A stretch of DNA of 64,000 nucleotides from Cyanidioschyzon merolae. Lineage: Eukaryota. Of the stretch, positions 1 to 58,829 are shown one piece after another. Location: NCBI GenBank assembly GCA_000091205.1, contig AP006501.2, one strand, 5' to 3'. The notes under the pieces are model-generated. The model was not told the origin of the DNA and did no database searches. It saw nothing but the letters and a program-made list of their open reading frames with translations. Positions within the stretch are counted from its first letter, which is position 1, and every line of letters begins with the position of its first letter. The position numbers and the translations under genes were made by a program.

Positions 1-356
1 AGCAAAGCTGGTCTGTCTTCGTGCTGCGTGCGTACAGGCGCTACTCGTGCACCATTGCGGATGCTCACGACAGGTTCCGCAAGCGATGGATCGTACCAAA
101 TGACCAGTACGTCAGAGGGAAAGTGCAGTTGGCGGAACATGGAGAAGGAGACACGACCGTTCCTTTTCCGATCGTTGATATATCAAAAGCAGAATCGAGG
201 ATCCCTGGTCTGTGTAAACGCTCTGTCAAGCAAAAGAAAAATGACGTCGCTGCTGCACCATCCGTGTCGCGCGCACACGCAGATACATGCCTGCGACGCG
301 CGTTTTCGCAGCACTGGTGGTACCGTTTTTGCCTCTTGCAAGACGTCACGCTGGGT

Positions 357-482
357 AGCGCGTTTTGCAGTATCGGATCCATAGACAATGCACGAGGCAG
401 ATTGGTACTCATCATGCTCGACGTCTCGGTAGCGCGTTTTGCAGTATCCGATCCATAGACAATGCACGAGGCAGATTGGTAC
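357..482. repeat. Tandem duplication of a ~54-bp unit (357-410 and 429-482) separated by 18 bp
   Basis: Direct reading: 'gtagcgcgttttgcagtatc[g/c]gatccatagacaatgcacgaggcagattggtac' occurs twice in tandem with one mismatch. Confidence 0.8.
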
Positions 483-508
483 CGCCAGTTCACAGGTTAT
501 CTTTTCTT

Positions 509-3148: not shown

Positions 3149-4054
3149 ATGACACTGTTTTTTGTAACTTGTGTCGGTAGTGCATCCATCTCTGGTCTCC
3201 AGAGATCGTCTACAGCACGTAGCGGTTTGCGAGCTGTTCCGAGGTCTAAAGGAACTGCGTTTCGCATGCGTAAGGGTCGTGCGAAGAACGGGCTCCTCAT
3301 GAGTAACGGGCCTGGTGACGCTGGATCGGGTCCAGTTGGCCCTGAGGGTGGCGCAGACGGCTCGAGCGGCTATGCAGCCGACCAGGACTATCCTTCGGAC
3401 TCGTATCGCAGGACACCAGCGGAGGCGATGCGCTCTGCTGTGTTTGATAAGGCGAAAATCGCCCAAACGAAACTCAAGTTGCTACAGCTCGCTGCGTCGA
3501 CGGGACGAGGCGATCTTGCGAGTACCGCTCAGCGTAACCTCGTAGAAGATCTGGTCACGCAGCTGGAGTCCATGTCACCGACTGTGTCTCCATTAGAGTC
3601 GGCGGATATTAATGGAAAGTGGCAGTTGGTGTACTGCTCGAAACCGTTGTACAAGATCAATCCGTTCTACTTGCCAGCAGCGACACCACTCGGTAACTTG
3701 GGCGTGATCACCCAAACCATCAACATGGACCTTGGAGAGCTCGTCAACGAGGCAGAGGTGCACTCTTTTCCGGCGGTGAACGGCGTCGTTGTTTCAGTCT
3801 CTCGCGTCCTGCCGGTGAGCGAGACACGGATGGAGCTGCTGGTGGAGCGGGTGACGCTGCGCGCTAAGGACGTCGCGGGGCGTTTCGACCTGGGCGGCCT
3901 CAAGCTCGATATCCCCGTAGAGGGATTCTACGACAGGCTCCAGGGTGGACAGCCAGGACGGCCTTTCTTGGATATTATCTTCATGGACGAAGACCTACGT
4001 GTGTGCCGAGGCAAGCAGCGTACGATTTACGCTTTCACAAAGCTGTCCAGATAG
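3149..4054 (+). CDS. Plastid-lipid-associated protein / fibrillin (PAP_fibrillin family)
   Basis: The track ORF 2999..4054 begins with TTG; the first ATG is at 3149. The N-terminus is S/R/G-rich and transit-peptide-like. The core 'INGKWQLVYCS...' and C-terminal 'LDIIFMDEDLRVCRGKQRTIYAFTKL' match the conserved fibrillin motifs ('L.GKW.L.YTS', 'YLDEDLRISRG...FVL'). Confidence 0.7.
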   Translation: MTLFFVTCVGSASISGLQRSSTARSGLRAVPRSKGTAFRMRKGRAKNGLLMSNGPGDAGSGPVGPEGGADGSSGYAADQDYPSDSYRRTPAEAMRSAVFDKAKIAQTKLKLLQLAASTGRGDLASTAQRNLVEDLVTQLESMSPTVSPLESADINGKWQLVYCSKPLYKINPFYLPAATPLGNLGVITQTINMDLGELVNEAEVHSFPAVNGVVVSVSRVLPVSETRMELLVERVTLRAKDVAGRFDLGGLKLDIPVEGFYDRLQGGQPGRPFLDIIFMDEDLRVCRGKQRTIYAFTKLSR

Positions 4055-7211: not shown

Positions 7212-8784
7212 CGTGTCTCTAATCGATGAGCAGCGGTGATCGCAGTCTCGTATGTAGTCAGCGCAGTGGATTCTGGAACAACTGTTCGAGGACGCGCTTT
7301 TGTTTCGATTGCTTTTCTCGCAGGTGTTCAACCAAGCAATTGTGTACTTTAGGTTCGGGGGAAAGTCGCGAAACGTTTTGAGCTTTTTATGGCTTGCTTG
7401 CGCAAACCGCCGTCATTCTTAACTGAAGGCAACGCAATCCGATAAAGTGCATGAATCAGCTGTCTCGTAGTGCCTGTTCCTAGAACTGCGCTCCAAAACG
7501 AGAACGTACCAGACGCCACCTACAAGCCTTGCTCGTTTTCAATCCGTTCCACTCCACAGTTCCGTTCAGAAAAAGCAGAGAAAAAACCACACGATATGAA
7601 GATTCTGTACCGTCGATACCGACGGTAATGAAGAGGCACGGGTGGACGACGCAAAAGCACGTTGCTCCGTGAGACCGTCGTACGTTGAACGAGACGCGCA
7701 CACTCTCATACGCACACCCGCGATCGATTACATCATGAAAAGCGAGCGGTTACTACGGGACGGACGAGTGCTCGTCGCTCTCAATGAGACTTCATTCAGA
7801 GAAGCGTGCAGACCTGGACACGGGCGCCCTAACAGGGATCATCGATGTTCGCACACCAGGAACACGCGAGTATTCCGAAAGGATCAGCAGTAGCAGCAGC
7901 ATGGAAATCGTGTGGTCGCCTACTTTTCGCCAAACGGGCGGGATTGCCCAACAGCTCATTCGCGGTCGAGGCAGTCCCCAGGATGCAGAGCTGAAGTGGA
8001 TGCCCTGCACGCTTGCTCCGGGGTGCGCCTTAGCGACCATGCGGCACATGCGGACGATCTTGGGGCAGGGGCACAGCGAACCGCGCTGGGGCCGCCAACG
8101 GTTTCGGTTGTATAGGCCGAACTGGCGTGCAATCGCCTACGTGGTCAGTCAGTTGGACAAAGCATCGACAGACGTGTCGCATCGTTTGGTGGAGGACGAA
8201 GGCGCTCGACGTATTGCTGCGCGCAAAGCACGTACCCGTGTTCGTTGCGCGAGAGCGCACACCGAGTGCAGGAATCGATGCGGTACGTGCTCCCGTTGAT
8301 GAGTTCAAAACGACGTATACGCATCACAAGAATGTGTGCACGCTGAAACGGGTAGAGAAGATGAATGTGAAACGGAACCTGATGCACGACGTGGTGTGCG
8401 GGAAGCGGAGCATCGTCAGGTAGCGACGAGGGTGCAGGTGAGCGGCTGGCAACGGCGTGATTCCCCGAGCAGCCACGCGTGCAAGCACATTCTGCGCGGA
8501 GACTTGGGCGTCTCAACGAGCACCCGGAAACGTCTCGTGCTTCCGGAGCGTCCATCGGTTTTGCATGAAGCGAGCGCTCGAGGTAGTAATCGGTTCGACC
8601 TTCGCGGCGCCATGGTACTGGAACGCAGAAGGCTTGCGATGAAAAGAATCAGTGGCGGCGAGAGAGGGCTCTGGATTCCCGACTGGAGCTATGCACTGGT
8701 ACGATATGGATCAGCAATCGAGTGAGACTCGTGTACTCTCATATATGCGCTGTGATTTGGATTCCCTGGCAGTTGGAGAAAGAT
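7212..8784 (+). mobile_element. Copy A of a repeated non-autonomous element (Fanzor-tail family); internal-deletion derivative
   Basis: The ~1.5-kb core (7264-8784) is ~98% identical to 39461-41010 and, inverted, to 56635-58190. The left-end motif 'gagcgtgtctctaa' (~7212) matches the left ends of copies B and C. About 580 bp of the Fanzor-derived segment present in B and C is missing here. Confidence 0.7.
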
Positions 8785-9333
8785 CGTGCTGATCCATACT
8801 TCAGAGTTCATAAGTCTGCTGAATCGCATCGCTCAGCTTCGAGCAAATCCTCCTCGATTCGGAGTCCTTTCGGCTGGCGCAGCGTCGCAACTGCACGAAA
8901 CCTCTTCGGCCATCTGTCGTGTTGCGTTGCGCTGCGAGCGCTTCAACGGACGTGGACGAACGAACTCTAGGCCTACAGGTATACGCACCCTATAAGATAG
9001 AATAGGCGAGCACACTGCTAGTCTCTGAGAAAACGCTGCGGGCGTCAGGTTCTCAAAAACTTTTGCCAGGCGCGCAGTCTGTTTTTGCGCGATTTGCTAG
9101 AGGCAACCCACTTGGCGTTGGTATCTGCTACGTTCGACCTTAAACAGTTGGCGCGACAGCTCTCGAACAAGCACTGCAACGCGGAGGCCCTTCACCGAGC
9201 CAAGGTGCTTCCGAACCTGCTGGAGGCGCCAGGAACGGACTGGCGCTCACTGCAGCACTAGGGCGATAGGGAACGTAGCGCGCCTGGCCAAAAGCCCAAA
9301 CGACGGAGACGTTTTAGATCATTTCCAGAGTCT

Positions 9334-17499: not shown

Positions 17500-17950
17500 A
17501 AGTATGTTCAACTAAAGCAATAAAAATTCAAGTGGGGGTTATGGGCATGGTAGTTAGGGGTTTCGGAGAGCTCTCCATGCCACGTCCGATGAAAACAAAT
17601 CAAAAAAATTTTCTTCTTGCTGATCATCGGGCGAACGAAAGCAAGTGATGAAGAAGCAGAAGACGAGGAGATATGGGCGAGAAAAGGAGTTTGCCCGACG
17701 AGACAATGCCGAGGTTGTATTGATACAGAGGGCGTGAGTAAGAGGAATGCTTGCATTGTTGACTTCCGCCAGCGGCAATGTACGCGAGGAGCTTATGAAA
17801 CGAGAGTTCAATGCTGGTATCAGTATAAGATGAATTGTGTTGCTGGAGACGGAACCCGAGGCGCTGACGCGAGCCGCCTTTGTAAGGTAACCTCTCAGCG
17901 TCGAAGTGTGCCTGGATAAACTGTAGCGGATACCAGGCAGTCGGTCAAAA
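17500..17950 (+). pseudogene. Degenerate Fanzor (TnpB-like) 3'-terminal fragment
   Basis: Across frames it reads 'FARRDNAEVV...LLALLTSASGNVREELMKREFNAGISIRRIVLL...FVRQPLSVEV'. This is homologous to the RuvC-III / C-terminal region of the other copies ('EFVNRDVNAAI...VRQPLRLEVY'). The upstream ~120 bp aligns at nucleotide level with 38960-39080. Confidence 0.6.
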
Positions 17951-18696
17951 AAGGCTGGGAGGCGTCGAAAAGTGGGTGAATAGATATACCCCCATGGTCG
18001 TGACACATTGTTCGTTGTGCTCACCACGTATGTAGATGCTGGTGCGAGCACCGTATGCTATGGCAACAGGGTAATGCTTTCCTATGAGAACGGGCCCTGG
18101 GTCCTTTGGCTCCGATGCCGTCTCGTGCATGCCCGTATGCATCGCATCACGCTCGGCAGCGTGATCGACGAGCCCGTTTGGAGCATGTCACACGTGTGTC
18201 TCGGTGCGGTATAATTTCGGAACTCTCGAATCACCGGTAGAGTCTTTATTGTACTAGAGCTCGCTTTAGCGGCACGACAGACTCGAATGCGTGACGCGTT
18301 GGCGGCCGTCAGAGCGCCACTAAGGGCTGTGGTGGCTCGGCTATCTTGCCCCGGCACATGGACATATTATTCCGTTTCCCCATCATAATCACCAGAGCCG
18401 CATGTTCCATGTCCATCCATACTGCCTGCTCAGATTGCTGCTCAACCGACTACGCTTGTATGGCATACGCATTAGGCCATCGAAGCCAATAGGCGCTTGA
18501 GACTAGAACGCAACAGCTGCAGCCATGCATAGTTGCCTCCTCGTGCGGCTGGCGCCCGCTAATGTTTGCGTTTGCGCAGTCTCATACAAGCGCGGCCTTC
18601 GTCACGTCAACAAAATGAGTCTTATTCGGCACCAGGTGGCGTAGTCGAGCGGTCTCCATCTGAGCATGCGATCGCCACGCACACCTGCAACGACCG

Positions 18697-18912
18697 CCGC
18701 TGTATCGATGGCGAGCTTAGTTTTCCTGGTTCAATGCATCCATCCGACACCATCTAAAACAACCAGCACCGCTGTATCGATAGCGAGCTTAGTTTTCCTG
18801 GCTCAATGCATCTATCCTACACCATCTAAAGCGATCAACACCGCTGGATCGATGGCGACTTTGGATTTCCTGGCTCAATGCATCTATCCGACACCATATA
18901 TGGCGAGCAACG
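18697..18912. repeat. Minisatellite, 3 tandem copies of a ~72-bp unit
   Basis: 'caccgc(cg)ctgtatcgatggcgagcttagttttcctggytcaatgcatcyatccgacaccatctaaa...' appears three times in tandem. Confidence 0.85.
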
Positions 18913-19210
18913 CCTCTGCATACCTGGAGTCTCTAGCAGTGTACACGCTTCCCTGAAGCAGGCTCATCGCGTGAGCCGGCCCCGACCAGCACCCAGTCCA
19001 GACAACGCGATCGTCGAAACGGATGATAGCTGCAGCTGTAGCAGTGGCAGTAGCAGCTGTGCGTTCGCGTAACCAGCTGCCCTATCCCGGAGCGGCCGCT
19101 CGTAGACGCGAACACACGCGCTGCCGTCGATGCCCGGCGGCGGGGCTGCGCTGGGCAGCGCGTATCGACAACGACGGACGCTTTTGTCGAGCGTCTTTAG
19201 CTATAGTGCG

Positions 19211-23325: not shown

Positions 23326-24912
23326 CTACACGGCCTGCTCGTTTATCTCACCAAGATGATCGATGCAACTGATTCGCAGCGTCGACGTTGGTTTCTGGAT
23401 GCGGCAACGTCGGCGTATGTCGTCCAGAGCGATCTGAAAATATTCCACCGGACGAGCGGAATCTAGAAACTCATCGTGATCGGCTACATCTCCGTCAACA
23501 TAGTACCCGATATGACCAATGCCATTTGGTGCAAATATGTGCACGAATCCATTGGCGTCTAGTGTTATGCGCGGTGAACGGCCCACTGCATGTAGTGGAT
23601 GACTCGGGCGTTCACTGGCGGAGGCGCCGTTAGTAACAGGTAGCATACGAGTGACCGAAGCGTGTGGTGCATTCGCAACCTGATAAGGAACACGCGCATC
23701 ATGCTCTAGTCGCTCGGGTGATGGTAGTGGTGATGCGGCTGGTTGCGCAGTGAACGAGGCCCAGTCCGGCTCTATCTGCTCTACAACAGCAAGTGCACCA
23801 ACAAAGTGCCGATGGAAATGCAAGCGGCAAGCAGCACTCCTATCCCAGTGCGGTTCGTGTGCCTCCCGCTCTGGATCTGGGTCTTGCACCGTGAAAAGAC
23901 GGTAGAAATAGTCAAAGCCGCGGGCCATGATACCACCACCGCGGCACGGATGCGGAAGCGACAGACAGTGACCCAGTTCATGCAGCATCGCGCCAATTGT
24001 TGTGGAGGCCAAGGCCCAGCGTTCACCGCGACCGGCGCTATCATCGAAGAAGTTAATTGAGTCTACGCGTCTCCGATCACTAAAGCGCTTTGGCACTTCT
24101 GAGAGCGTCTGTGGCCATGCGTACATACCACTGGAGCCAAAGAGCGCTAACGTGCCTCCACCAAGTGCTGTGTGTCCATACACACGGCCTGTGCTCGCAT
24201 CTTTTGACGTGAAAGACATGACAGCCACGTCGATACACTGCTGGCGGTTAGATATGTTCGAGAGCTCCTCAGCAATCATACCCCAGAGCGCGTCACCCGA
24301 AAGTGCATGCAGCTCGGCTCGTGTCCGCGACAGACGCCTTACATGAACAGGTACATCATAGGCGCAGTGAATCTCTTCGATATTCCCTGGCAACGGAGTC
24401 GCACACGCAGCGCTCATACGTTCAATGCAAAAGCTCAAATGACCGAGGCCTTGCTCATGAAGCAACTCTGCGGCAGCTGTTTGCATGAGTCGTAACGCTA
24501 ACGCGAAACGGCGCACGGCGCTCGCAAGCATACAGTCTTCGTCGGGCGGAGCTTGGAAACGCACCTCCACGGCGTCTCGCGGCACGACGTAGACTGCTCG
24601 GACTACATAGTCCCAGGGGACGTCCAGATAGTGAACGCGAAACTGCAGTTTCGCTGGCCCGCTCAGCGGACCCGCAGCGACAAGGTTTACCCCTGGTTGC
24701 AGCCAGACTAACGCTCGAAACCTACCATCGCAGTTGCGCACAGGCCAAGGCGTTCGTTGCTGTTCAGCAACCAAACTACCTGGTTGAGCATTTGCCAAGT
24801 AAACGACGACGCACGTGAGGTGCTCATTGAGCGGCACCTGACCGCATATCAGAAGCAACGGAAACGTTACAGCTTCGTCTGGTCGGAGGTTCTCAACCCG
24901 CCATCGCACCAT
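23326..24912 (-). CDS. Putative zinc metalloprotease (metzincin-like HExxHxxxxxH motif)
   Basis: 528-aa ORF with an ATG at 24912. 'AMLHELGHCLSLPHP' has the metzincin spacing HExxH-5-H, with Ser in place of the Gly. I cannot assign a closer family. Confidence 0.45.
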   Translation of the reverse strand: MVRWRVENLRPDEAVTFPLLLICGQVPLNEHLTCVVVYLANAQPGSLVAEQQRTPWPVRNCDGRFRALVWLQPGVNLVAAGPLSGPAKLQFRVHYLDVPWDYVVRAVYVVPRDAVEVRFQAPPDEDCMLASAVRRFALALRLMQTAAAELLHEQGLGHLSFCIERMSAACATPLPGNIEEIHCAYDVPVHVRRLSRTRAELHALSGDALWGMIAEELSNISNRQQCIDVAVMSFTSKDASTGRVYGHTALGGGTLALFGSSGMYAWPQTLSEVPKRFSDRRRVDSINFFDDSAGRGERWALASTTIGAMLHELGHCLSLPHPCRGGGIMARGFDYFYRLFTVQDPDPEREAHEPHWDRSAACRLHFHRHFVGALAVVEQIEPDWASFTAQPAASPLPSPERLEHDARVPYQVANAPHASVTRMLPVTNGASASERPSHPLHAVGRSPRITLDANGFVHIFAPNGIGHIGYYVDGDVADHDEFLDSARPVEYFQIALDDIRRRCRIQKPTSTLRISCIDHLGEINEQAV

Positions 24913-24971
24913 TCACGCCGTTCGAAAGTCGAACGACGCGAACGGTGTACAGTAGTGGCGGCAACCGCGCC

Positions 24972-27377
24972 CTAGACGAAACGTATACAACTGACGTTCA
25001 GACGCCTTCCAGCCTTTTTGGACCGGCCACCCACTACTGCTTCCAACTTTTTCGCATATAGTTCGACTTTGAGGGGTTGCCTAACAACATTCTCTCGTGT
25101 CAACTCCGGAGGTCTCTTCTCCAGCACCGCGCATTTCCTTAGATTGATGGCGGCATTAAAATCTCGATTCACGAATTCCATCCGTTTCTTGCCATCACTG
25201 GCTGTATTCACTAATGCGAGTAATCCTCGCACTTTTGCCCTCCTTTCCATTTGCTCCCCCGTCAGCGGCCCATACTTTTTTATATCCTCAGGGCACCTCT
25301 GGCACTTTTCCATCTCGACCCTCTGAAGTGTACACCCCAGTTCAGGGTGTATATAGGACGTCCGGAACTCATCTATAGGTATCGTAACGAAACGCCGTGC
25401 ACACTCCTTGTATATTCTTGTCGTTGGAGCAGGCGTAGTTCCTTTTTGGGTCTTCCAACACCCTGCCCCATACGCTACGAAGAGCCTCTGACCTTCATCC
25501 TCCTTCAAGGCGCTCAACTGATTGGAAAAAATTCGCGAACGCCCGCTGCCTCCCACCGTATACATTCATACGCACTCGAATCCACCGAGGCTTGGTATAC
25601 TCCTCCCACAGCGCATCCCAATGAGCAACACGAACTTCCATCAATTTCAGAAAAGCCTGAAAGTCCGCATTCCGGCTCGTCACCTCACTCATAGCTTCCA
25701 GGCGATCCTTCATTCCTTCGTTCCATGTCTCAATTTTCTTCCTTGCATTCATTATACCGGATTCCCGATAATATCTTGCTCTCGAGAACCCCAAAGTTCG
25801 CATGTCTTTCTGACGTAAGCTACCGTCAATGACATCTTCCGCACGCTTGGGTGCTGCGATGGTAATGATATTCGTATTCCCAGGGTCCGCGCCAACGACA
25901 AAGTCGTTATCCTCTACCTGCTGCGTCGCTGGATCCTCCTTCTCCTTTTCTCCATGCTTCGTCACGGGCTCAGCCGAAGGCAGGACTGGACGATCTGTCT
26001 TGAACCGCCCATAGTGTACACACATGGCTACTCTATCGGATTCCATCATCCTCTTGAATACCTTTTGTTTACTCATTTTGAGACGTTTGAAATCTAAGAT
26101 ATCCTTCCAGTACGTCTCCCGGTTTTCGCCGGTGAAGTCCTCCCTGCTAGCATCAAACTCGGGATTGATATCCCTCATGATGCCGTTATGGACGCCGAAG
26201 TCGATACTCACAAAATGTGACTTGATGTTGCACAACGGAACGCCGTTGAAGCGCTTTCCCGTTAGGAAAGCCTTCCGTCTCTCCCACTCTTCATTTTTTT
26301 CCCCACTCAGCTTCATCTCTGCCTTGCGTTCGAGCTCTCGGTCCAGAAACACAAAATAGCGCAGGATGAGGCCATGATATCTTTCCTTACCGTTTTTCAA
26401 CTCTGATATCTTTTCTGCTAGATTCGCCAGCCCCAAGTCTGCGCGGCGCTCTTGAATAGCCGCACGGATTACAGAAGCTTCATTCGTGCTCTCGTTTGAC
26501 GCCTTCTTGTCGACGAATTCGATCTCATCTTCACGCTTGCGATCTTTCGTGATGCCGTCGATAATCGCCCATTTTCCATTGCGAGACAGACCCGGGTAGA
26601 GTGCAGCCACGCGCGTATCATGAAACGTTCGAGGTTCATGTTCAAATGGTTCTTCAGATTCGTGAGGTACTTCATAGCCCCATAGTCGTAAATATCCCGG
26701 TCACCCTTGTATCGAGTACCCTCGAAGCAGAATTTCGCGAAGTTTTCGTGGAGGACGTGCACCCGCTCATTTTCCCTCCATGTTTCCTCTGTACCAAGCA
26801 TCAGCTGACGAACAAAGGTCTTATCGAAAAACTCGTCCGGAATCTCGACCATTTCCACGTGCGTCACGTCGCGATACATCTCCCTCACCAAATGCATCAG
26901 TCCTGATGACGCCTTGACAATACTCTTGGAGTACGAATCGACACGGTTCCTAATGGCCTCTCGCAACTTTTGTTTGTGAGGATCCTTGTTATGTTTAAGA
27001 AGACAGGTTTTCACCACCATCTCGTCGTACTGTCTTCTTTCTCGCAGCCTTGGACGTGCGGCCTCCTGCCTTTGCTTCTTCTGCCCTTCCTGTTCTTCTT
27101 CGCCCCGCCATGTTTTTCGTGTTTCTCCACCAACCGGCGACACAGGGCCCCAGGATCCTCCGCTTCCACTTCCATAACTTTCCATTTTTAATTTTTTATA
27201 ACGCTCTCTGAACGCTTCTGCTCCAAACAGCGAAAAATCACTTGAATACACTTGCTTGAGTGTTGAAACACAATTGAACTGAATAATATACGTTGCTACG
27301 ACTTTAATGAAAATAAAATTTGCCGGGTAGAACAACACGCTACAGATTAGGATTCCATTCCTCTTCAACGGCGACAT
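24972..27377 (-). CDS. Fanzor-like (eukaryotic TnpB/OMEGA family) RNA-guided nuclease gene, near-intact. It is split over three overlapping ORF segments (26469..27377, 25495..26610, 24972..25565)
   Basis: The N-terminal segment has a K/R/E-rich NLS-like region. The middle segment carries RuvC-I ('[17 protein letters not shown]'). The third segment carries RuvC-II ('[16 protein letters not shown]'), a zinc finger ('[14 protein letters not shown]') and RuvC-III ('[15 protein letters not shown]'). The order RuvC-I, RuvC-II, ZnF, RuvC-III and the 'RDxNAAxN' motif are characteristic of TnpB/Fanzor. The frame changes between segments are consistent with either tiny introns or inactivating frameshifts. 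Confidence 0.8.
25518..25563 (-). other. Candidate 46-nt GT-AG intron joining Fanzor ORF segments 2 and 3
   Basis: On the minus strand the sequence 'gtatacggtgggaggcagcgggcgttcgcgaattttttccaatcag' begins with GT and ends with AG. Removing it joins '...RVRMN' in frame to '[19 protein letters not shown]...'. A length of 46 is not a multiple of 3, which explains the frame switch. Confidence 0.35.
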
Positions 27378-27794
27378 GCGCGTCGTGTCTCGTGACCACC
27401 TGATCCGGAGGTGCGCGTACCGACCGCGCTATACAAACGAAGAGCAAAAATGAATCATTAAATAGCGACGAGGTAACAATGTCTTTCTTCCTCTACGAGA
27501 AACGTAAAAAGGATGAAAGTTTTTCGTATTGTGGAAAAGTTTACCTTACAGGCGGAGGGTCCTGCGAGCTGGACGATTCTGCTAGGCTGGTGCTCGGTGT
27601 GCCTCTAAAGTGGCGGATGCTGTAGCGAGACCTGCGCAGCTCGTCCGCAACGCAGTTTTTTGGGACTAGGGGCAACAAAGCCGCGTCTGGGCGTCGCCCT
27701 GTTGCGGTGGTCTCCTAGTATATCGTTTCGCGCTGCCGCAGAAAGTACGTCCGTCAGCGCAGCTTGCAGACTCTCAGAACTATTATGTACTCCG

Positions 27795-28010
27795 AGACGA
27801 TGCCAGGTGCACCACGCCTCGAGCCGACGCCCTCAGTAGTATGGCAAAGCCGTTCTGTCTCCGTGCAGCATCCGCACCAGCGGTAGGCGCTACATCTGGT
27901 GCTGACGCCAGGCACTTGCTGCACGATAGAATGTACGAGACAACCTGTATATCCTCGAGGAAGTATAAGAAATGAAGCTTGAAGGTAAGTGCATCATAGT
28001 GGACGCTTTC
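27795..28010 (+). repeat. ~200-bp interspersed repeat, copy 1 (family also at 34738-34860 and, inverted, at 46005-46235)
   Basis: Nucleotide alignment by eye: 'cctcgagccgacgccctcagtagtatggcaaagccgttctgtctccgtgcagc...' matches the reverse complement of 46005-46235 and the forward strand of 34745-34860. Confidence 0.7.
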
Positions 28011-28335
28011 CCGAAAGCAAATATCCATCCCGCAATCTGGGATCCATGGTCAATATAAACGTCTTGTCATCGAAATATGCCTCCCGACTGGGGGACGCGT
28101 CAGCGTCGCAGCGCATCGCTGCTGGCGACCCGACGGCTGGACACGTTTCCTCTGCGTATCTGTGCCGCACGGCGCTGCAGTGCCTGGAGACTCCAAGAAG
28201 TGGGGTGTGCGTTTTGTTTGACGGATCGGTAGTGGTTGGGTGTGCTACAGTTCCACGAAGCAAACCGTTCTGCTTAGTTGTGTTCTCTCTAGAGTTCTTT
28301 CCGCGGAGGCCTGAGACTTAGCGAATTTATTTGTT

Positions 28336-28773: not shown

Positions 28774-30307
28774 GCAATTGGTCAGGGGTGTGCCATGCGT
28801 CTCGTGGCTCGATCAATAGACAGCTCACACCATCATGGACGATGTGGCCGAACTTGGAGTATCATATGGTTTGCGCCCCGTAGCGGGCAGCTCTGTGCTG
28901 CGTAGACAGGTCTCTCCGAACCGTTGCATATGTCATCCAGGATTTTGCATGTTATATATGAAGAACCCCTCCTGCAGATCGAGGAAAATCACCGTCTTCG
29001 GAACGCGAGTAGTAACCGGTCTGTTCCAGCTGTATGCGGATTGTCAGCCCGAGGTTTACTGGCAATAAATCTGGTGCTTTTCGGAAAATAGATTGAGCAT
29101 CTCGAAGGGTACATCGTAAATGCTGTATTTTCTGCATAAAGTTACATCAAAAACATGCCAAGTATCAGAGGCATAGCTCACGCCCCGGACCGTCTCAGTC
29201 TTAGCGGGATCTGCACCGGACCCTATCAGAAAGTTACTACGCACACTGGTGTATGCGTTGTCCGAAATTCGCCAACTCTACTTCCATAGTGCCGTACGGT
29301 GTAGAGGCGCGAAGCGTCCAATGAACCTGTGTGCGACAAGTCCAGCTCGGCCAATTTTCTGTGGCGCTGGGTACGTATCCACGCTTGTCGTACGTCGAAG
29401 GGCGGCTTTGCGATGCTTTCATTGATGTCGGCCCGAGGGATCGAGCACTCTGCCCCGTGCGACGTCATACTGAAGAGGGATCGTGTGGCTGGACGCATAG
29501 CGTTTCCGTCTTTGACATCATCACTCGTGTGACAGTTTTCAATAAACTCGAGACAGCTGATCTTCAGCATGCCTGGTTACTAGGACGCACCAAGCAACAC
29601 GTATGCCGTACCATTAAGAGACTGCCTTACAAAGCAGCAAGAAGCAGAAGCAAAACGCAGCCATACAGAAGGGTGGCGCTAGCGCTGGCAGTCCACAACA
29701 AACTTGGATGCTTCCAGCGAACTCAAACGGGTTACGCCTCCATTCTTCTCCGCGCACACAAGCAGCTAGCAGGGACAGTACGAAAGCTCCCGTTCCACGC
29801 GCGAAATAGACTACAAAAGGTTCTGCTTTATGATTATGATACTTGTTCTTGCCTTTATATGGAGCCGGCCGCTGCCGAATAAAAACTATCTACCGACAAG
29901 AGAACAGACTCTGCCAAGCTAATTCCAACTTCGGATGCACGTACTTGCCAACTGCGTTCAAGGGTTTTTCTGAAGACTGCACGTTGCGACTGCGGAGCCC
30001 GGCACCGCATCAGTACGCCAACTAGCGTTTTCATGGTGCAGAATCGATGAATATAGCTAGGCCAATGTCAAACTTCAATGCAACTGGTCCACGTACCGAC
30101 TTTGGGCGAAGAATCTAAAGCCTCGGCCTCATCCAATGTCATCAACGCCAGCATTTACGTATTTTTGCTGCGACTGGTCCCATTTTCTCCTTTTTTCTGG
30201 ATTACGATACGCTGGTCCCTCCTTTTGCTCAAGTTCCATTGTCAGTAGCCGAAAGACCTAGATGACGGCATTATATTTCCTTTTTCACCATTTTTGGAAG
30301 TTGCCCA

Positions 30308-31422
30308 TACAATTCATGCACAGGCGGCGGTTGCGACATGCGCGTCGTTTGCGATAAGGGAATCGTCTTGGCATACGGTCGCGCTGTACCCGCTGCAGGG
30401 GTGACACTTGAGACTGGTCAGGCGTTCCCTCAGATGCACACGAGCTCCCCGTCATCCTCCTCTTCCTCCAAGGGCCGCCCCACGGTACCTGAACGCTCCC
30501 CTCACCACCCGGTACATGCCCATGACGGGTGCAGAGTGCCCCCATGGGTGCCCGACTCCGTTGCGCGCTGTGCGCTACGTTTGCGTGCTTGTTCTGGGCG
30601 ATCCCCTAGGAGCGGACGTCGTACGCTCGACGTGCAAGCGCACCATGTTCCATTCGACAGAGCCTGTATGGAATGCAACGTTGTCCGTGGTGTAACGAGT
30701 GGCCGACGGAAAACCCAGGCTGGAGATTTGTTCGAGAAATTTGGATTTATGTTCACTCATTTCGTGCTAAGCTGCGACGCGTCCTCTACAGGAAGCGATC
30801 GCTACGATCGCTCAAGTTCGAGTCCATAACCGTATTCCGTGCAAAGAGAACAGACAGGAGCCTCTAAGGCATATTCCGTGGGACTTGTGATGCTTCATTC
30901 GAATGGAGCTTCCCTGATGTCCACAATAGGGGACGATTTGTCTTCGGAACGGAACCGATCATCGGACCTGAATCGGGCGGTGGTCTTTCAGCATGAGCTT
31001 GTGGGCACGTCGCCAAGGGACGACGCGGGCTACTACGTGCTCTCGTCGATCCATCGGCGCAAGTCGCTGTGCCCAACGAGCATCCTTGCAACAAAATAAG
31101 CGAAACCCCGGGAAGTCGGTGATTTGAGCACACTCCTGGCTGTCCAATTTGACAAGTAGAGGCTTGAACGTAAGCGTTGGATAATGGCATGTATTGATTT
31201 ACGAAAACTTGCTCTAAAGCGTCCTGAAAATGGCGATTTCGGTAACGTAACAAATTCCGGCGGCAGAGCGTCGTGTTTGCAAGTCCCAGAGGAAAACAAC
31301 GCAACCTTAAGCTACGGTGTAATCCTTACGCCCTCACTGCTTGAATTCGAGTGTGCAGGCTGTACACCTGGGAAGGGTTCGCAAAAAATCGCTAGCCAGG
31401 TACAGGGCGGGCGTTCAGTCTT
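30308..31422 (+). repeat. Inverted repeat arm 1 (~1.1 kb), partner at 33616-34727
   Basis: Identical ORF translations occur on opposite strands (30338..30829(+) = 34207..34746(-); 30864..31304(-) = 33753..34172(+)). Both boundaries were read by nucleotide comparison. The arms are near-identical apart from a few indels and SNPs. Confidence 0.9.
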
Positions 31423-32227
31423 GTACTTTAATCTGATACAGGCGCAGCATCGCAGCCGGGCGTGCTGTCGCCCTGATATGAACGCTCCTATACAGCCATC
31501 TGCTCGCGCTAGTTGCAGATTCCTCATCGTCGGGGAAGGTGCTCTTCTTCCAGGGAGCGGTCGATGCCTGCTGCAAATTCACTACGCCACACAGTTCCTC
31601 AAACGAAGACCAGCCATCCCTTACGCCCTCAATAATCGGGTTACTGACCCTACTCGCCAATGTGACCCTGAGCGGGCGCCATTCTGAGCGAGACCCGAGC
31701 GCTGCGTCTTCCGATCATGCGTGGGACAAACTCTCCCCACAGTTGTCCGTCGAGTGCCTGCCTGGGGCGCCACGATAACAATCGCTCGTGATGGCCCCAC
31801 CTCGGGATCGATGCTGCGCGTCATGGCACGCGTTTTACGTAGTGGCTGCCCCGGCGGCATCCCTGGGCTCACAGGATGACGCATGCACCCGCATGCACAA
31901 AGTCAGGCTCTGCACTAGAGGCTGAGATATCCGTATCCTCGCGTGGCCGGTTCAAAATACACGTATGTGCGCAGCGGTTACATGCGAGTGCCGCTTCGTG
32001 CATGAAGCAGCACCATCGCAAGCCTCCGGTGAGCCGCATTTCAGGACGTTTAAGAATCCGCTCTCGATGATTCCGGCAACCGGCTGGTGTACGAATCCTG
32101 GAGTTATTGCTGGAGAGGTTGCGGATGCTGTGGGCAAAGATGCCATGAACAGCGAAACTGCTGCCAAATTCGCGTACCGCGCATCGATGCTCTAGCGCTT
32201 CCTTAAACGACCACTGTTTTCTGCCGA

Positions 32228-33370: not shown

Positions 33371-33615
33371 GCGTAGAAGGTGCACAGCGCCCTTTGTTTC
33401 GGTTCAGTTATGGGCCAATTAGAAACCGTCTGAGCGCCCTCTGCTCCAGTCGATCTGAGCAACGCTGGGTCAGACAAAAATGTTTCTAAGCGTTGCAAAT
33501 GGCGTCGATGATCCAGTGCGCTGCGCGTCAGCGCGTGCTGAAGTGCTCGTTATTTGAGGACGAAAGCCATTCTGTGACTAGAGACATCTAAAGCCGTGGA
33601 ATAATAGAATAAAAG

Positions 33616-34727
33616 ACTGAACGCCCGCCCTGTACCTGGCTAGCGATTTTTTGCGAACCCTTCCCAGGTGTACAGCCTGCACACTCGAATTCAAGCAGTG
33701 AGGGCGTAAGGATTACACCGTAGCTTAAGGTTGCGTTGTTTTCCTCTGGGACTTGCAAACACGACGCTCTGCCGCCGGAATTTGTTACGTTACCGAAATC
33801 GCCATTTTTCAGGACGCTTTAGAGCAAGTTTTCGTAAATCAATACATGCCATTATCCAACGCTTACGTTCAAGCCTCTACTTGTCAAATTGGACAGCCAG
33901 GAGTGTGCTCAAATCACCGACTTCCCGGGGTTTCGCTTATTTTGTTGCAAGGATGCTCGTTGGGCACAGCGACTTGCGCCGATGGATCGACGAGAACACG
34001 TAGTAGCCCGCGTCGTCCCTTGGCGACGTGCCCACAAGCTCATGCTGAAAGACCACCGCCCGATTCAGGTCCGATGATCGGTTCCGTTCCGAAGACAAAT
34101 CGTCCCCTATTGTGGACATCAGGGAAGCTCCATTCGAATGAAGCATCACAAGTCCCACGGAATATGCCTTAGAGGCTCCTGTCTGTTCTCTTTGCACGGA
34201 ATACGGTTATGGACTCGAACTTGAGCGATCGTAGCGATCGCTTCCTGTAGAGGACGCGTCGCAGCTTAGCACGAAATGAGTGAACATAAATCCAAATTTC
34301 TCGAACAAATCTCCAGCCTGGGTTTTCCGTCGGCCACTCGTTACACCACGGACAACGTTGCATTCCATACAGGCTCTGTCGAATGGAACATGGTGCGCTT
34401 GCACGTCGAGCGTACGACGTCCGCTCCTAGGGGATCGCCCAGAACAAGCTCGCAAACGTAGCGCACAGCGCGCAACGGAGTCGGGCACCCATGGGGGCAC
34501 TCTGCACCCGTCATGGGCATGTACCGGGTGGTGAGGGGAGCGTTCAGGTACCGTGGGGCGGCCCTTGGAGGAAGAGGAGGATGACGAGGAGCTCGTGTGC
34601 ATCTGAGGGAACGCCTGACCAGTCTCAAGTGTCACCCCTGCAGCGGGTACAGCGCGACCGTATGCCAAGACGATTCCCTTATCGCAAACGACGCGCATGT
34701 CGCAACCGCCGCCTGTGCATGAATTGT
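33616..34727 (-). repeat. Inverted repeat arm 2
   Basis: Reverse complement of 30308-31422 (see arm 1). Confidence 0.9.
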
Positions 34728-34737
34728 GTGGACAGCA

Positions 34738-34860
34738 GCCGAACACCTCAAGCTGACGCCCTCAGTGATATGGCAAAGCCGTTCTGTGTCTGTCCTGCGA
34801 TCGCACCGGCGCTTTAGGAGCCATCGCTGACGCTCAAGGCGGGCTCGGCGCACGAAAGAA
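34738..34860 (+). repeat. ~200-bp interspersed repeat, copy 2 (partial), abutting the outer end of IR arm 2
   Basis: 'gacgccctcagtgatatggcaaagccgttctgtgtctgtcctgcgatcgcaccggcgct...' aligns with 27820-27930. Confidence 0.6.
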
Positions 34861-35417
34861 CTGGAAAACTGCACGGTGTCTTCGAAGGAAGCCCCGATGA
34901 GTGCAACTTGGAAGGAGGCGTAGCGATTGATGCTCCATCGTATGCTGGTATCAAGCGCACAATCGGGGATTCCCGGTCTGGGCAAACCCTCGATCAGAAA
35001 ACAGCTGGAGGCGGCGATATCGAGGACTGCAACGCTACGATCAATATCATTCAACTGCGTACAACCGCGTTGGACAGACAGGAGAGACCGGTATATGTAA
35101 AGCTGAAGATATGAAAGAGAAAAATGATCAGTAACAAGAAACTTGCAAAGGATGGTGTTGATGATATTGGAATAGGCCTAAACTTAAGAGTCTTTGCCCA
35201 AGTTCAGTGAGTGAATCCGTAATACTCTCATGTGACATGGGTGCGAAGAAGATCGGCCAACGTGCATCAACTGCCCGATGCGCGCCAAAATACGCGCGCG
35301 GACGCTGCTCGAACGCGCCTCGGTCGGCAATTTCCCGCGGCAAGCTTCTTCCCGCCTGGTACTCTCTGCCCTGCGTTGGCGTGTACCCAATATTCACAGA
35401 AGAGCCTTTGTGAAAAC

Positions 35418-38501: not shown

Positions 38502-38826
38502 TGAATCTAGGGTTTAAACTAGCCGCTTTCGTGTTCCTAGGAAAGAGTTTGTAGAAGAGTCCAACCAGCTTGCTCCGATCGTTGCAAGCAACCCGTTGGA
38601 AGCGATCTAGCTGGCGGGTCCAGGCGATTTGGCTTAGCCTGCAGCCTGCCTTTAACAACGATTAAAGGATTTGAGCACAATAAAACCTCAAGTAAAGCAC
38701 GCAAGCCTTTTCACGAAGCCGCTCACGTGGAATAGGAGTTCTGTAACAGTCTTTGCGACGATATGCACTTGCTCGAAGCGGCCGTCGCCGATCGATGGCA
38801 GGCGAGGCCGTCAACCACCCAAACCC

Positions 38827-41010
38827 GAGCGTCTCTAACATAGTCTGCTACCTCTATTATGTTCCACCGCAGGTGCGAGTCCTTTACGGCCTCTTCGCGG
38901 TTTACCGCAGATTCATTCGAAGCGCGTTCATCTTGAAGAAATACAGTATTCAAGGGGAAGGTATGCACGTAAAAGCCGAGGATCCTGGAGGACCGTCATC
39001 CCTGGCTGCCCGAAGAAAACGCAAAAAATCCTCTCATCGCCGATCATCGAGCGAAGACAAGCAAGTTACGAGGAAAAAAACAGAATAGGGGACACAGACG
39101 ATAAAAGGTGTTTGCTAGACGTGACAATGACGAGACTGTTGTGGCGCAGGGGGCGCGAGTACTTGGAATTCTTGCAATGTTGAGCTCCACCAGCGTCAAT
39201 GCACGCAAGGAGTTCGTGAATCGAGACGTGAACGCCGCCATCTATACCAAACGATGTGCGGTGCTGAAGAGGATACCCGAGGCGCTGGCGCGAGCCCGTC
39301 TTGTGAGGCAGCCTCTCAGGCTCGAGGTATACATGCAGAATCTGGAACTGATAGCAGGCGGCCGGTCAGACGAGAGAGTGAGGCGTCTGCGAGTGGGTGT
39401 CTATGTACCTATCATGGTCGTGAACCGCTGCTCGTTGTACCGACTATAAACTTAGAGCAGTGGATTCTGGAACAACTTTTCGAGGGCGCGCTTTTGTTTC
39501 GATTGCTTTTCTCGCAGGTGTTCAACCAAGCAATTGTGTACTTTAGGTTCGGGGGAAAGTCGCGAAACGTTTTGAGCTTTTTATGGCTTGCGTGCGCAAA
39601 CCGCCGTCATTCTGAACTGAAGGCAACGCAATCCGATAAAGTGCATGAATCAGCTGTCTCGTAGTGCCTGTTCCTAGAACTGCGCTCCAAAACGAGAACG
39701 TACCAGACGCCACCTACAAGCCTTGCTCGTTTTCAATCCGTTCCACTCCACAGTTCCGTTCAGAAAAAGCAGAGAAAAAACCACACGATATGAAGATTCT
39801 GTACCGTCGATACCGACGGTAATGAAGAGGCACGGGTGGACGACGCAAAAGCACGTTGCTCCGTGAGACCGTCGTACGTTGAACGAGACGCGCACACTCT
39901 CATACGCACACCCGCGATCGATTACATCATGAAAAGCGAGCGGTTACTACGGGACGGACGAGTGCTCGTCGCTCTCAATGAGACTTCATTCAGAGAAGCG
40001 TGCAGACCTGGACACGGGCGCCCTAACAGGGATCATCGATGTTCGCACACCAGGAACACGCGAGTATTCCGAAAAGATCAGCAGTAGCAGCAGCATGGAA
40101 ATCGTGTGGTCGCCTACTTTTCGCCAAACGGGCGGGATTGCCCAACAGCTCATTCGCGGTCGAGGCAGTCCCCAGGATGCAGAGCTGAAGTGGATGCCCT
40201 GCACGCTTGCTCCGGGGTGCGCCTTAGCGACCATGCGGCACATGCGGACGATATTGGGGCAGGGGCACAGCGAACCGCGCTGGGGCCGCCAACGGTTTCG
40301 GTTGTATAGGCCGAACTGGCGTGCAATCGCCTACGTGGTCAGTCAGTTGGACAAAGCATCGACAGACGTGTCGCATCGTTTGGTGGAGGACGAAGGCGCT
40401 CGACGTATTGCTGCGCGCAAAGCACGTACCCGTGTTCGTTGCGCGAGAGCGCACACCGAGTGCAGGAATCGATGCGGTACGTGCTCCCGTTGATGAGTTC
40501 AAAACGACGTATACGCATCACAAGCATGTGTGCACGCCGAAACGGGTAGAGAAGACGAATGTGAAACGGAACCTGATGCACGACGTGGTGTGCGGGAAGC
40601 GGGGCATCGTCAGGTAGCGACGAGGGTGCAGGTGAGCGGCTGGCAACGGCGTGATTCCCCGAGCAGCCACGCGTGCAAGCACATTCTGCGCGGAGACTTG
40701 GGCGTCTCAACGAGCACCCGGAAGCGTCTCGTGCTTCCGGAGCGTCCATCGGTTTTGCATGAAGCGAGCGCTCGAGGTAGTAATCGGTTCGACCTTCGCG
40801 GCGCCATGGTACTGGAACGCAGAAGGCTTGCGATGAAAAGAATCAGTGGCGGCGAGAGAGGGCTCTGGATTCCCGACTGGAGCTATGCACTGGTACGATA
40901 TGGATCAGCAATCGAGTGAGACTCGTGTACTCTCATATATACGCTGTGATTTGGATTCCCTGGCAGTTGGAGAAAGATCGTGCTGATATACTATCCGATT
41001 TTACTGCGGA
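38827..41010 (+). mobile_element. Copy B of the ~2.2-kb repeated non-autonomous element: a Fanzor 3' fragment (38835-39460) plus the 1.5-kb core (39461-41010)
   Basis: Near-identical to 56635-58824 inverted; the core is identical to 7264-8784. The ends were read from where the three copies diverge: left 'ccgagcgtctctaaca', right '...gatcgtgctgatatactatccgattttactgcggatat'. No target-site duplication is seen. Confidence 0.8.
39108..39449 (+). pseudogene. Fanzor/TnpB C-terminal fragment (RuvC-III) inside copy B
   Basis: 'ARVLGILAMLSSTSVNARKEFVNRDVNAAIYTKRCAVLKR...VRQPLRLEVYMQNLELIAGGRS' aligns with the intact copy's '[41 protein letters not shown]...[22 protein letters not shown]'. Confidence 0.75.
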
Positions 41011-41354
41011 TATGAAGCGAGATGCAACACAGTGTTTTGATATAAATCCGCGCATTCAAACCTATAGACTTTCAGATGAACTTTGACACTCGCAACACAA
41101 ATCTCGCTCGTTGGAGCTGCTCGACTCGCGGCGTCTAGCCTTCTCGAAACTGGAATGCGACTGCCGGACAGTCACAGTTGCAAAACGTTCGCTGCGAAAT
41201 CGGTCATTGGGACAGTATTTCCAACCATCCACGGCTATTTCATGTGCAAAAGCTCTCCAAGCCGTAGAATTTGCAGTGTTTTCTTTTTTATAGGCATGCA
41301 CATGAGCTTTCTTATTTTGACGCTCCAAAGAACTAGTGTCTGATTCGGCGATCG

Positions 41355-44399: not shown

Positions 44400-45908
44400 A
44401 ATTATCGCTCTTTACAGATTCCTTGGTTGAAGCAACCAGTCAATAAATAAAAATATATCGTCATTGGAACAAAAAATGTTTGTCGAACAGTGAGAGTAAA
44501 CATATAAACTCAAGCGCAGACGACTTCCAGCCATTTTTGACCGGGCACCTGCTATCGGTTTCAGCTTCTCCTTATACACTTCAAGCCTGAAAGGCAGCTT
44601 CACGAAGTTCTCTGGCGTCAGCTATGCGATTCTCGTCTTCAGCACCGCACATCGTCTGATGTTGATATCGGTTTCGAAGTCTCGGCTCACGATCTCCTTG
44701 CATACATTGCTGCTAGTTAACGTTATTTATGCAAGGGTTCCTTGAACTCGTGCCCTTTGTGCCCCTACAGTCTCGTCATCCTACTGTCGGGCAGACACCT
44801 TGCATCGCACATCTCTCATCGTCATCTTTTCCGTGGTCACTTGCTCCTCATCGCTCGATGGTCGCCAAGGAGAGAATTTTTCGCTTGTTCGTCGAACCCG
44901 CAGGCAAGGGGCCTCCAGGACCCTCCACTTCCATGTCCATAAGTTTCCTTTATACAGTATGGTCTTGAAAATGAATGCACCTCTTTATGAACTCAGGTGA
45001 GAAAATTCCTCAAGCGTGAAGCTCTTGCGTAGGAGAGACGAAATGTGCCCCAGTGTGTCGTCGTGTGCTGAAAGCTTCAGCGATTCGGCCAGCGGAGGGA
45101 TCATTACGTTTCACGATCCAAAACGGTCATTCGAAGACGTTGAATCACGGCAATTACGGAGGGATGAAAAGCTACTGTACCCAGGCAGGATCCGCAAATG
45201 CTCGAAACCAAGTCGAATTGTTAAATACCATGTTGATCAATGGAAGGACGTCGCCAGACGTCAGGAGTAAAGTCTTTAATGATTCCACAAACTTGGTGGC
45301 GCTGTTGTATGAGCCTTCTTCACTTGCGAAACTGAGGCCATCAAATGAATCCATTCCAGCTTGAACTGATGAAGATATCATCGTTCTCTTCGAGTACCTT
45401 CATGCATGCATCGGGCCCCCAGTCAGCGAATACCCATCCATGCCCCGATCGTTTTTCCGAAGAAGGTTTCATCGATTTGAAAAACATACCAATGTCTCTG
45501 TGCTTCATATCGATCGCAGCGTTCCGAGAATTCTGTCGTTGCGATTTCGGTGGAAGCTGACGTTCATTGAACTTTGACTTTCTTGTAAGCGTATCCTAGT
45601 GTTTTCAAGACTACACGAACAAACTGCTGAGTAACCGAGACGCCCGTGGAGACTTTCATCGTCCTTTTTGCTTTCCGTAAGGCGATTAACGGGACGTTTT
45701 CTACCACCGACAGCAGGCAATCTCCGAGAATATTGGTTTTTTGCCTGTAGTGTACATGCTTCTCTCCTTCCAGTGTTCCTGAACCATCTGAAACTGTGGT
45801 ATGACTGACCTGCAGAAGGAATGCAGTATTCCGTGTATTGCTCAGTAAAGAACATATACTGGGCATTTCGTCTACATTCTGTGGGGTATCTTGCCGGGCC
45901 ACTTCGAT
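44400..45908 (-). pseudogene. Degenerate Fanzor-like pseudogene (X1), interrupted at its 5' side by a retrotransposon insertion. Inverted paralogue at 58830-60200
   Basis: The 3' end translates (with frameshifts) to '...RLEVYKEKLKPIAGARSK'. Its nucleotide sequence aligns with 38960-39440 and with 59830-60200. The body, 44990-45910, matches 58900-59820 inverted. The section reading '...VTQQFVRVVLKTLG' recalls '...[10 protein letters not shown]' of the intact copy. Confidence 0.55.
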
Positions 45909-58824: not shown

Positions 58825-58829
58825 CGGGA

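Follow-up and report, generated by a model that had tools for sequence, protein, structure and literature searches.

The closest described relative of the locus treated here is CMe-1A, which Bao & Jurka (2013; Mob DNA 4:12, PMC3627910) reported as a Fanzor1 element of the Cyanidioschyzon merolae genome. In their account the genome carries about 150 copies, which individually match a 3169-bp consensus at about 80% identity and some of which remain intact; no terminal inverted repeats (TIRs) are present, target-site duplications (TSDs) were not determined, and the 5' 635 bp correspond to a separate repeat, TE-N2_CMe (PMC3627910). The same authors, who also defined Helitron2, left the class of CMe-1A unassigned (PMC3627910). 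Fanzor1 structures have been solved for SpuFz1 of Spizellomyces (8gkh, 9ceu-9cez), PpFz1 of Parasitella (9cf0-3) and GtFz1 of Guillardia (9cer-t), and characterised Fanzors load a guide RNA and cleave double-stranded DNA (dsDNA) with their RuvC domain (PMC10530073, PMC10711439). Here we analyse 64,000 nucleotides of C. merolae DNA (GCA_000091205.1, contig AP006501.2), called the window throughout, and we suggest, with a probability of roughly 95%, that its positions 24916-28072 on the minus strand are a full-length copy of CMe-1A, a non-autonomous transposon with a Fanzor1 gene as its sole gene, and that this copy is a pseudogene inactivated late in its history. The family had already been published in 2013, together with its host genome, copy number and assignment to Fanzor1, and the locus is not new.

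Identity of the element

The identification rests on the CMe-1A consensus DNA (Additional file 2) and the 734-aa CMe-1 protein, both taken from the additional files of Bao & Jurka (2013). The whole consensus (1-3169) can be aligned, from its first base to its last, with window positions 28072-24916 on the minus strand; of the 3171 alignment columns 16 are gap columns, and identity is 86.2%. Within the coding sequence (CDS) nucleotide identity to the consensus is 87.5%, and the translation, once its frame is repaired, is 80.6% identical to the published protein. Because the consensus match runs end to end and the protein is so similar, we read the locus as one complete CMe-1A copy. It shares with the published element the same genome, a nearly equal length (3157 bp against 3169 bp), a TE-N2_CMe-like 5' 635 bp, a single open reading frame (ORF), a short 3' tail, the lack of TIRs, and a divergence within the usual range of the family. 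It departs from the consensus in three 1-bp indels, in the substitution G385R, in a Ser-to-Cys change that produces the string CQRC, and in the loss of the basic motif KKRK. The features on which the argument draws are as follows.

24916-28072, minus strand: complete CMe-1A element, 3157 bp, corresponding to consensus 1-3169
27440-28072, minus strand: 5' module, equivalent of TE-N2_CMe (consensus 1-635), non-coding, 84.2% identity
27186-27439, minus strand: 5' non-coding leader (consensus 636-905), 85.2% identity to the consensus
24972-27185, minus strand: what remains of the Fanzor1 (CMe-1) CDS, about 735 codons spread over three frames, a predicted pseudogene with no in-frame stops
27147-27151, minus strand: frameshift 1, a 1-bp deletion (consensus 932) at about 27149, nine codons past the family start at 27175
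26609-26613, minus strand: frameshift 2, a 1-bp deletion (consensus 1471) at about 26611, where the 302-aa ORF meets the 371-aa ORF
25520-25530, minus strand: frameshift 3, one base inserted into a T/C run (consensus 2558) at about 25525, where the 371-aa ORF meets the 197-aa ORF
25855-25899, minus strand: RuvC-I motif, 15 residues including GADPGNTN, with the putative catalytic Asp in DPG (D434)
25353-25385, minus strand: RuvC-II motif, 11 residues including IDEFRTS, with the rearranged 'alternative' Glu next to TS (E607)
25293-25334, minus strand: C-x10-C-x2-C cluster at the TnpB zinc-ribbon position, a degenerate ribbon rather than a conserved zinc finger
25131-25175, minus strand: RuvC-III motif, 15 residues including NRDFNAA (D676), aligned to NRD..A..N of PpFz1
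24975-24984, minus strand: 3' subterminal inverted-repeat partner, ACGTTTCGTC here and ACGTTTTGTC in the consensus, pairing with the 5' terminal GACAAAACGT at 28059-28068
24916-24938, minus strand: 3'-terminal hairpin CGTCGTTCGA-CTT-TCGAACGGCG, running to the element's final base

An initial annotation, made from the sequence of the window, had reported three consecutive minus-strand ORFs that together encode a near-intact Fanzor-like protein of about 800 aa. The ORF listing gives the same coordinates, 26469-27377 (302 aa), 25495-26610 (371 aa) and 24972-25565 (197 aa), overlapping one another and lying in frames -3, -2 and -3. Fusing the three pieces at the two obvious junctions gave a 738-aa joined query, with which the pieces are colinear in tblastn and which finds 44 database homologs (E = 0 to 3e-59); many of these are Joint Genome Institute (JGI) metagenome fragments of 60-85% identity, one is an intact 752-aa paralog (P0001), and six are full-length relatives of 28-39% identity. 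On this colinearity and these 44 homologs, the three-ORF arrangement is evidently not a product of chance. The GC skew of the region is strongly negative, which fits a purine-rich coding strand, here the minus strand. The length, on the other hand, was overstated: the true protein would have about 734-738 aa, since the first ~64 codons of the 302-aa ORF precede the family start codon, in a part where the consensus is non-coding, and are leader. The consensus CDS starts at consensus 906, which is window 27175, and the 302-aa ORF crosses most of the leader (to 27377) by chance alone.

The housekeeping genes on both sides of the element, and the past purifying selection described below, might be taken to mean that the locus is a single-copy Fanzor gene domesticated by the host rather than a transposon copy. 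We regard this as extremely improbable. At least 145 related stretches occur in metagenomes carrying this genome (80 loci were retained from them), and strain 10D is reported to have about 150 copies; moreover, homology takes in the non-coding 5' part (~900 bp) as well as the 3' tail and stops at sharp ends, and the ORF is broken. Host domestication was therefore rejected on the end-to-end match to a multicopy consensus.

Comparison among copies suggests that the element is modular at its 5' side. The 5' ends of copies fall into two clusters, at consensus 1-3 and around 648. Between the window copy and the metagenomic paralog locus L001 identity is 81-84%, and Fanzor-copy homology between these two loci begins at consensus ~648; the 1.26 kb directly 5' of the Fanzor core in L001 (8407-9671) is not TE-N2_CMe but a sequence 85.5% identical to window 45919-47179. 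Since the sequence upstream differs in L001 and homology starts at ~648, it appears that differing 5' modules have been joined to one Fanzor core.

Membership of the CMe-1 protein in Fanzor1

All the strings that the initial annotation had quoted for RuvC-I, RuvC-II, RuvC-III and the cysteine cluster were located in the translation. In alignment A1, the eight-sequence family alignment behind our family profile, D434 (in DPG), E607 (in DEFRTS) and D676 (in NRD) are invariant. The RuvC-I motif aligns to the DPG of PpFz1 and GtFz1, and the RuvC-II motif to the IDEFRTS of PpFz1. Both are regarded as Fanzor signatures, DPG in RuvC-I as distinct from typical TnpB (Yoon et al., 2023, PMC10711439) and the alternative glutamate as shifted beside the TS motif (Jiang et al., 2023, PMC10530073). 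Searched against the sequences of the PDB, the family profile returns two matches only, PpFz1 (E=7.7e-10) and GtFz1 (E=0.12), the former in two stretches that cover the TDG/RuvC-I and the RuvC-II/III regions; a phmmer search of the joined protein has a Spizellomyces Fanzor1 (SpuFz1) as its top PDB match, though a weak one (E=0.2).

The fold points in the same direction. An AlphaFold (AF2) model was made for the paralog P0001, whose identity with the frame-repaired window protein is 74% in alignment A1, from a 26-row alignment that included the window pieces. It has a predicted local distance difference test score (pLDDT) of 66 and a predicted template modelling score (pTM) of 0.42, with most of the RuvC half at pLDDT 70-89. 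In a Foldseek search of the PDB its seven best matches are all Fanzor1 (E=1e-12 to 9e-9, template modelling (TM) score up to 0.59): by protein, the best are SpuFz at 1e-12 (target TM 0.59), GtFz at 5e-10 and PpFz at 7e-10. Cas12 proteins come next at E>0.01, and Cas12f, Cas12o and other Cas12 are thus the weaker fold matches. The comparison with SpuFz1 that the initial annotation had proposed, made here through the paralog, accordingly has SpuFz as its best match.

With the solved Fanzor1 proteins CMe-1 shares the fold, TDG, DPG, the alternative Glu in [DE]E[FY][RK]TS, RD.NA and GLL.C, at an identity of only 12-16%. Prokaryotic TnpB (IS200/IS605, e.g. ISDra2) and Cas12f share with it the architecture of a RuvC-based RNA-guided nuclease, but where TnpB has D-hydrophobic-G, CMe-1 has DPG, together with a rearranged Glu, a long NLS-like (nuclear localisation signal) N-terminal extension and no zinc ribbon.

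Could the motifs nonetheless be a chance likeness, in a protein that is really an unrelated RNase H-fold or DUF8286 protein? The best Pfam match of the protein is only PF07282 (Cas12f1-like TNB domain), at E=0.22 and over NRDFNAAIN of RuvC-III alone, and the label of the family is that of a domain of unknown function (DUF). Against this, the profile and fold searches of the PDB are each significant for Fanzor1 chains only, and the discoverers of the family assigned it to Fanzor1 (PMC3627910). The unrelated-protein reading was rejected on the PpFz1 profile match and the seven top Fanzor1 fold matches, and we give it hardly any credence. The catalytic D/E/D residues and the RuvC profiles had been named beforehand as the points on which the Fanzor claim could fail; the residues align and the Fanzor1 matches are significant, and the Fanzor interpretation therefore stands.

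The cysteine cluster fared differently. The initial annotation had described it as a CxnCxxC zinc finger, but its third Cys is private to the window copy, the consensus reading CQRS and having two Cys, and the distant relatives P0039-P0044 are without these cysteines. Among the best clade members with both flanking motifs, 112/121 have no CxxC between RuvC-II and RuvC-III; the supposed zinc finger is a coincidence specific to this copy. What is conserved instead at the ribbon position of the clade is RGLLWC.ST; the four cysteines of the PpFz1 ribbon, CPKC...C..C, are replaced. The C4 zinc ribbon was part of the 2013 motif definition of Fanzor1, yet CMe-1 was placed in Fanzor1 (PMC3627910), and 'many' Fanzors, not all, are stated to have a zinc finger (PMC10711439). 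The clade is large, with 4157 cluster representatives at a threshold of E<=1e-3 and still 2007 when E<=1e-10 is required. Full-length relatives of 25-35% identity are also found on IMG/VR contigs (L082-L087), including the giant-virus metagenome-assembled genomes GVMAG-S-1045060-49 and GVMAG-S-3300000576-28, which fits the known viral spread of Fanzors.

Several observations weigh against our interpretation and should be set beside these results. Neither Pfam nor NCBIfam yielded a significant match to any of the three ORFs or to their joined translation. The precomputed Pfam label of the family is DUF8286 (PF26935). The structural model is of moderate confidence, and is of the paralog P0001 rather than of the window copy. 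The clade lacks the C4 zinc ribbon found in all solved Fanzor1 structures. No guide RNA was located, and just 59 nt separate the stop codon from the end of the element; among 33 non-redundant copies, conservation is not raised at third-codon positions or in the 3' tail; and scans of the whole window for tRNAs and for Rfam families returned no match. We also know of no demonstrated nuclease activity for CMe-1. With regard to the first of these points, the absence of significant Pfam and NCBIfam matches indicates that curated hidden Markov model (HMM) libraries miss the CMe-1 clade; one clade member does reach PF07282, at 6.7e-5. Taken with the consensus match, the Fanzor1-only profile and fold matches and the invariant D/E/D, the evidence from sequence and modelling supports the assignment of the protein family to Fanzor1, a eukaryotic TnpB homolog, and in that respect the call of a Fanzor/TnpB-type nuclease gene was correct.

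By analogy with characterised Fanzors, the basic segment at the N-terminus would bring an active CMe-1 protein into the nucleus. The protein would load a guide RNA (omega RNA; the fRNA of Jiang et al.) that is transcribed from the 3' end of the element and reads into the flank, and would cut guide-matched dsDNA beside a target-adjacent motif (TAM), using a single RuvC site composed of the DPG Asp, the DEFRTS Glu and the NRDFNAA Asp.

Inactivation of the window copy and past selection

Pairwise alignment with the consensus places three frame-breaking 1-bp indels in the window copy, at consensus 932, 1471 and 2558. The first is masked, as an out-of-frame alternative ATG at 27185 keeps the ORF open. 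In addition, a nearly invariant Gly (G385, of the TDG motif) is Arg in this copy, and the classical NLS of the consensus, KKRK, is degraded to ETRKT; the region stays K/R-rich, and the N-terminus, as the initial annotation had it, is still basic. With three 1-bp indels and the TDG Gly-to-Arg change, the window copy is predicted to be unable to make the CMe-1 protein and is, on its sequence, a pseudogene. The description 'near-intact' thus holds in so far as a Fanzor/TnpB-type gene without stops is present in a nuclear locus; it fails in that the gene is a pseudogene, broken by three 1-bp indels and not merely divided at two junctions.

It might be argued that the gene is functional, and that the frameshifts either arose during assembly or are overcome, whether through programmed ribosomal frameshifting or through small introns; the repaired CDS has no in-frame stops, its ratio of nonsynonymous to synonymous change (Ka/Ks) is 0.38, and one of the shifts lies within a T-run. 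We consider this very unlikely. The same locus is present in five independently assembled contigs (L018, L019, L020, L088 and L090, from JGI metagenomes Ga0080006, Ga0123519, JGI24721J44947, 3300050362 and 3300052694), at 99.7-99.9% identity over 8.5-12.9 kb; relative to the window, L019, L020 and L090 have zero gaps, and L018 and L088 have one each, at a position that is unmapped. As five independent assemblies agree, the indels are real. The consensus and the intact paralog P0001 are each one unbroken ORF with no shift; the signs of the shifts are mixed (-1, -1, +1) and they have no slippery motif in common; introns are impossible at 1 bp; and the loss of the nearly invariant Gly would come on top of the shifts. 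We note that the five contigs are identical to 10D at the level of the strain, and hence add no evolutionary depth. Contigs of this 10D-like kind (99.7-99.9%, 8-13 kb) occur in several environmental metagenomes, and their recovery there suggests that a 10D-like strain is abundant in those samples.

The inactivation of the window copy nevertheless seems to have come late. The repaired CDS has 0 in-frame stops, against ~11 expected had its 274 substitutions been neutral, and 0/2000 simulations gave zero. Measured against the consensus, Ka/Ks comes to 0.38 for the whole CDS and to 0.20 for the RuvC half. Across the 33 non-redundant copies, codon positions 1+2 are better conserved than position 3 throughout (0.90 vs 0.77 in the RuvC region). 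Because of the missing stops, the Ka/Ks and the codon-position pattern, we conclude that most of the divergence accrued under purifying selection at the protein level: judged by these substitution patterns, the lineage leading to the window copy diverged from the family consensus largely under selection and was inactivated only late. This agrees with the remark of Bao & Jurka (2013, PMC3627910) on the long-lasting coding capacity of the CMe-1A family. A near-complete ORF with all three catalytic motifs is found at one locus alone (L001/L006) among the 80 metagenomic loci.

Element ends, surroundings and significance

A search for a terminal inverted repeat joining both ends of the element found none, just a 10-nt asymmetric one: consensus 5-14, given above as the 5' terminal arm, is the exact reverse complement of consensus 3098-3107. 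It is the sole such match in the element, and a 10-nt inverted match was reached in 7/5000 shuffles. Both arms carry uncompensated changes in the window copy, and compensatory changes between the arms, sought in individual copies, were not found; since uncompensated changes are to be expected in decaying copies, the changes in the arms are uninformative. The hairpin at the 3' terminus has a 10-bp stem in the window copy (-13.4 kcal/mol, z=-4.2), which carries the 'type B' variant of the CMe-1A terminus. In most copies the terminal ~23 nt fold as a hairpin (mean z -1.76 in 24 copies vs +0.63 in controls), and of the two sequence variants of the terminus both fold. At the 5' end there is a weak 5-bp stem in the consensus and none in the window copy. 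Full-length insertions have a T-run before and a T after them, and inspection of the flanks of copies showed only this T-rich preference, with no consistent TSD. An empty pre-insertion site was sought through orthologs of the adjacent metallopeptidase gene, but all recovered contigs were 99.7-99.9% identical to 10D and had the insertion; as every one of them carries it, ends and TSD are not definable by an empty site.

These ends invite comparison with the Helitron2-type Fanzor1 carriers CRe-1/2/3 of Chlamydomonas, with which CMe-1A shares its non-autonomous, Fanzor1-only composition, the lack of TIRs, a 10-nt asymmetric inverted repeat, a 3'-terminal hairpin, a T-run/T insertion site, and an over-representation of 3' ends among fragments. 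The hallmarks of Helitron2 are a terminal 5' arm that takes part in a 5' hairpin and a 3' arm 20-30 bp from the end, upstream of the 3' hairpin (Bao & Jurka, 2013, PMC3627910). In contrast, the 3' arm of CMe-1A is set 62 nt in from the end and is followed by two hairpins, and there is no clear 5' hairpin. CMe-1A also differs from the TIR-flanked element in which SpuFz1 sits, and, unlike IS200/IS605, is a eukaryotic nuclear element without TnpA. One may tentatively imagine, although we think it unlikely, that CMe-1A and TE-N2_CMe belong among the rolling-circle or single-strand elements with hairpin ends, like Helitron2 or IS200/605, and that the guide RNA shares sequence with the 3' end of the CDS and continues into flanking host DNA, here the first codons of the metallopeptidase gene. 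If this were true, the 10-nt asymmetric repeat and the 3'-terminal hairpin would define the ends of CMe-1A, and a Fanzor1 without a zinc ribbon would use that guide.

The gene directly downstream of the element, 23326-24912 on the minus strand, encodes the zinc metallopeptidase BAM82735.1 (Pfam PF12044, E=5e-68). The last base of the element is 24916 and the metallopeptidase ATG occupies 24910-24912 on the same strand, which leaves 3 nt between them; as the Pfam Metallopep match begins at residue 5 of BAM82735.1, the ATG at 24912 is the real start. With the element ending 3 nt upstream of this ATG, either the promoter or 5' untranslated region (5'UTR) of BAM82735.1 would lie inside the element, or the gene would be reached by read-through transcription. 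It might be supposed that the copy persists because its 3' end was co-opted as promoter or 5'UTR of BAM82735.1, given this spacing and strand and the identical arrangement of element and metallopeptidase in all environmental assemblies of the locus. We find this doubtful: intergenic spacers of C. merolae are generally short, and transposable elements (TEs) of C. merolae are reported to be broadly silenced by PRC2/H3K27me3 (bioRxiv 2022.10.24.513474). Such co-option would concern a side effect of the insertion and would not conflict with the reading of the locus as a late-inactivated CMe-1A copy. Elsewhere in the window, genes of housekeeping or plastid-related function encode a PPR protein, an ORC1-like protein, eIF3e, ATP sulfurylase, a PAP-fibrillin and a Tim17-like protein, and four window ORFs match C. 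merolae 10D proteins exactly (BAM82734.1, BAM82735.1, BAM82739.1 and BAM82744.1), which assigns the window to strain 10D.

The window contains further sequences related to Fanzor. Diverged CMe-1-like 3'-end fragments lie at 17728-17966, 39151-39390, 44507-44697, 58263-58502 and 59860-60102 (67-75% DNA and 45-52% protein identity), and sequences of a third set, strongly decayed and situated at about 7958-8584, 40152-40820 and 56875-57501, have ~29% identity to the relatives P0039 and P0040. The initial annotation had seen two Fanzor lineages coexisting here; the diverged fragments bear out that more than one is present, but with the third set the count is no longer two, and all belong to one Fanzor1 clade.

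Some of these fragments are associated with repeats. A 2.19-kb unit, either a young repeat or a segmental duplication, forms an inverted pair at 38824-41013 (plus strand) and 56640-58828 (minus strand) with 98.95% identity, and has a third, partial copy of 1.54 kb at 7260-8800 (plus strand, 99%). It contains an internally deleted CMe-1-like derivative at about 38894-39449, in which the first ~40 and last ~110 codons are kept, and a separate, frameshifted Fanzor-like RuvC fragment at about 40152-40820. A 0.9-kb inverted pair, 44969-45875 and 58928-59835 (98.5% identity), adjoins CMe-1-like 3'-end fragments at 44507-44980 and 59860-60102. A 1.1-kb inverted repeat, 30302-31425 and 33610-34734 (99.4% identity), surrounds a segment of ~2.2 kb that carries an RNA methyltransferase gene (PF02598, 32228-33385), and a short TE-N2_CMe-like piece at 34746-34861 was assigned to one of its arms. 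Finally, a short direct repeat at 18688-18921 (162 bp, 84.6% identity, 72-bp offset) suggests a tandem array downstream of a CMe-1-like fragment at 17603-18018.

The value of this locus as a discovery is small, as the family was published in 2013 and the window copy is dead. The copy is, however, a clean case of recent inactivation that retains the imprint of purifying selection, and as such it supports the view of CMe-1 as a Fanzor1 that was functional for a long time. That a large Fanzor1 clade without a zinc ribbon is labelled just DUF8286 bears on the annotation of Fanzor nucleases and on the mining of compact ones, and the 3' hairpin and the asymmetric repeat provide testable leads on the mobility of these unclassified elements.

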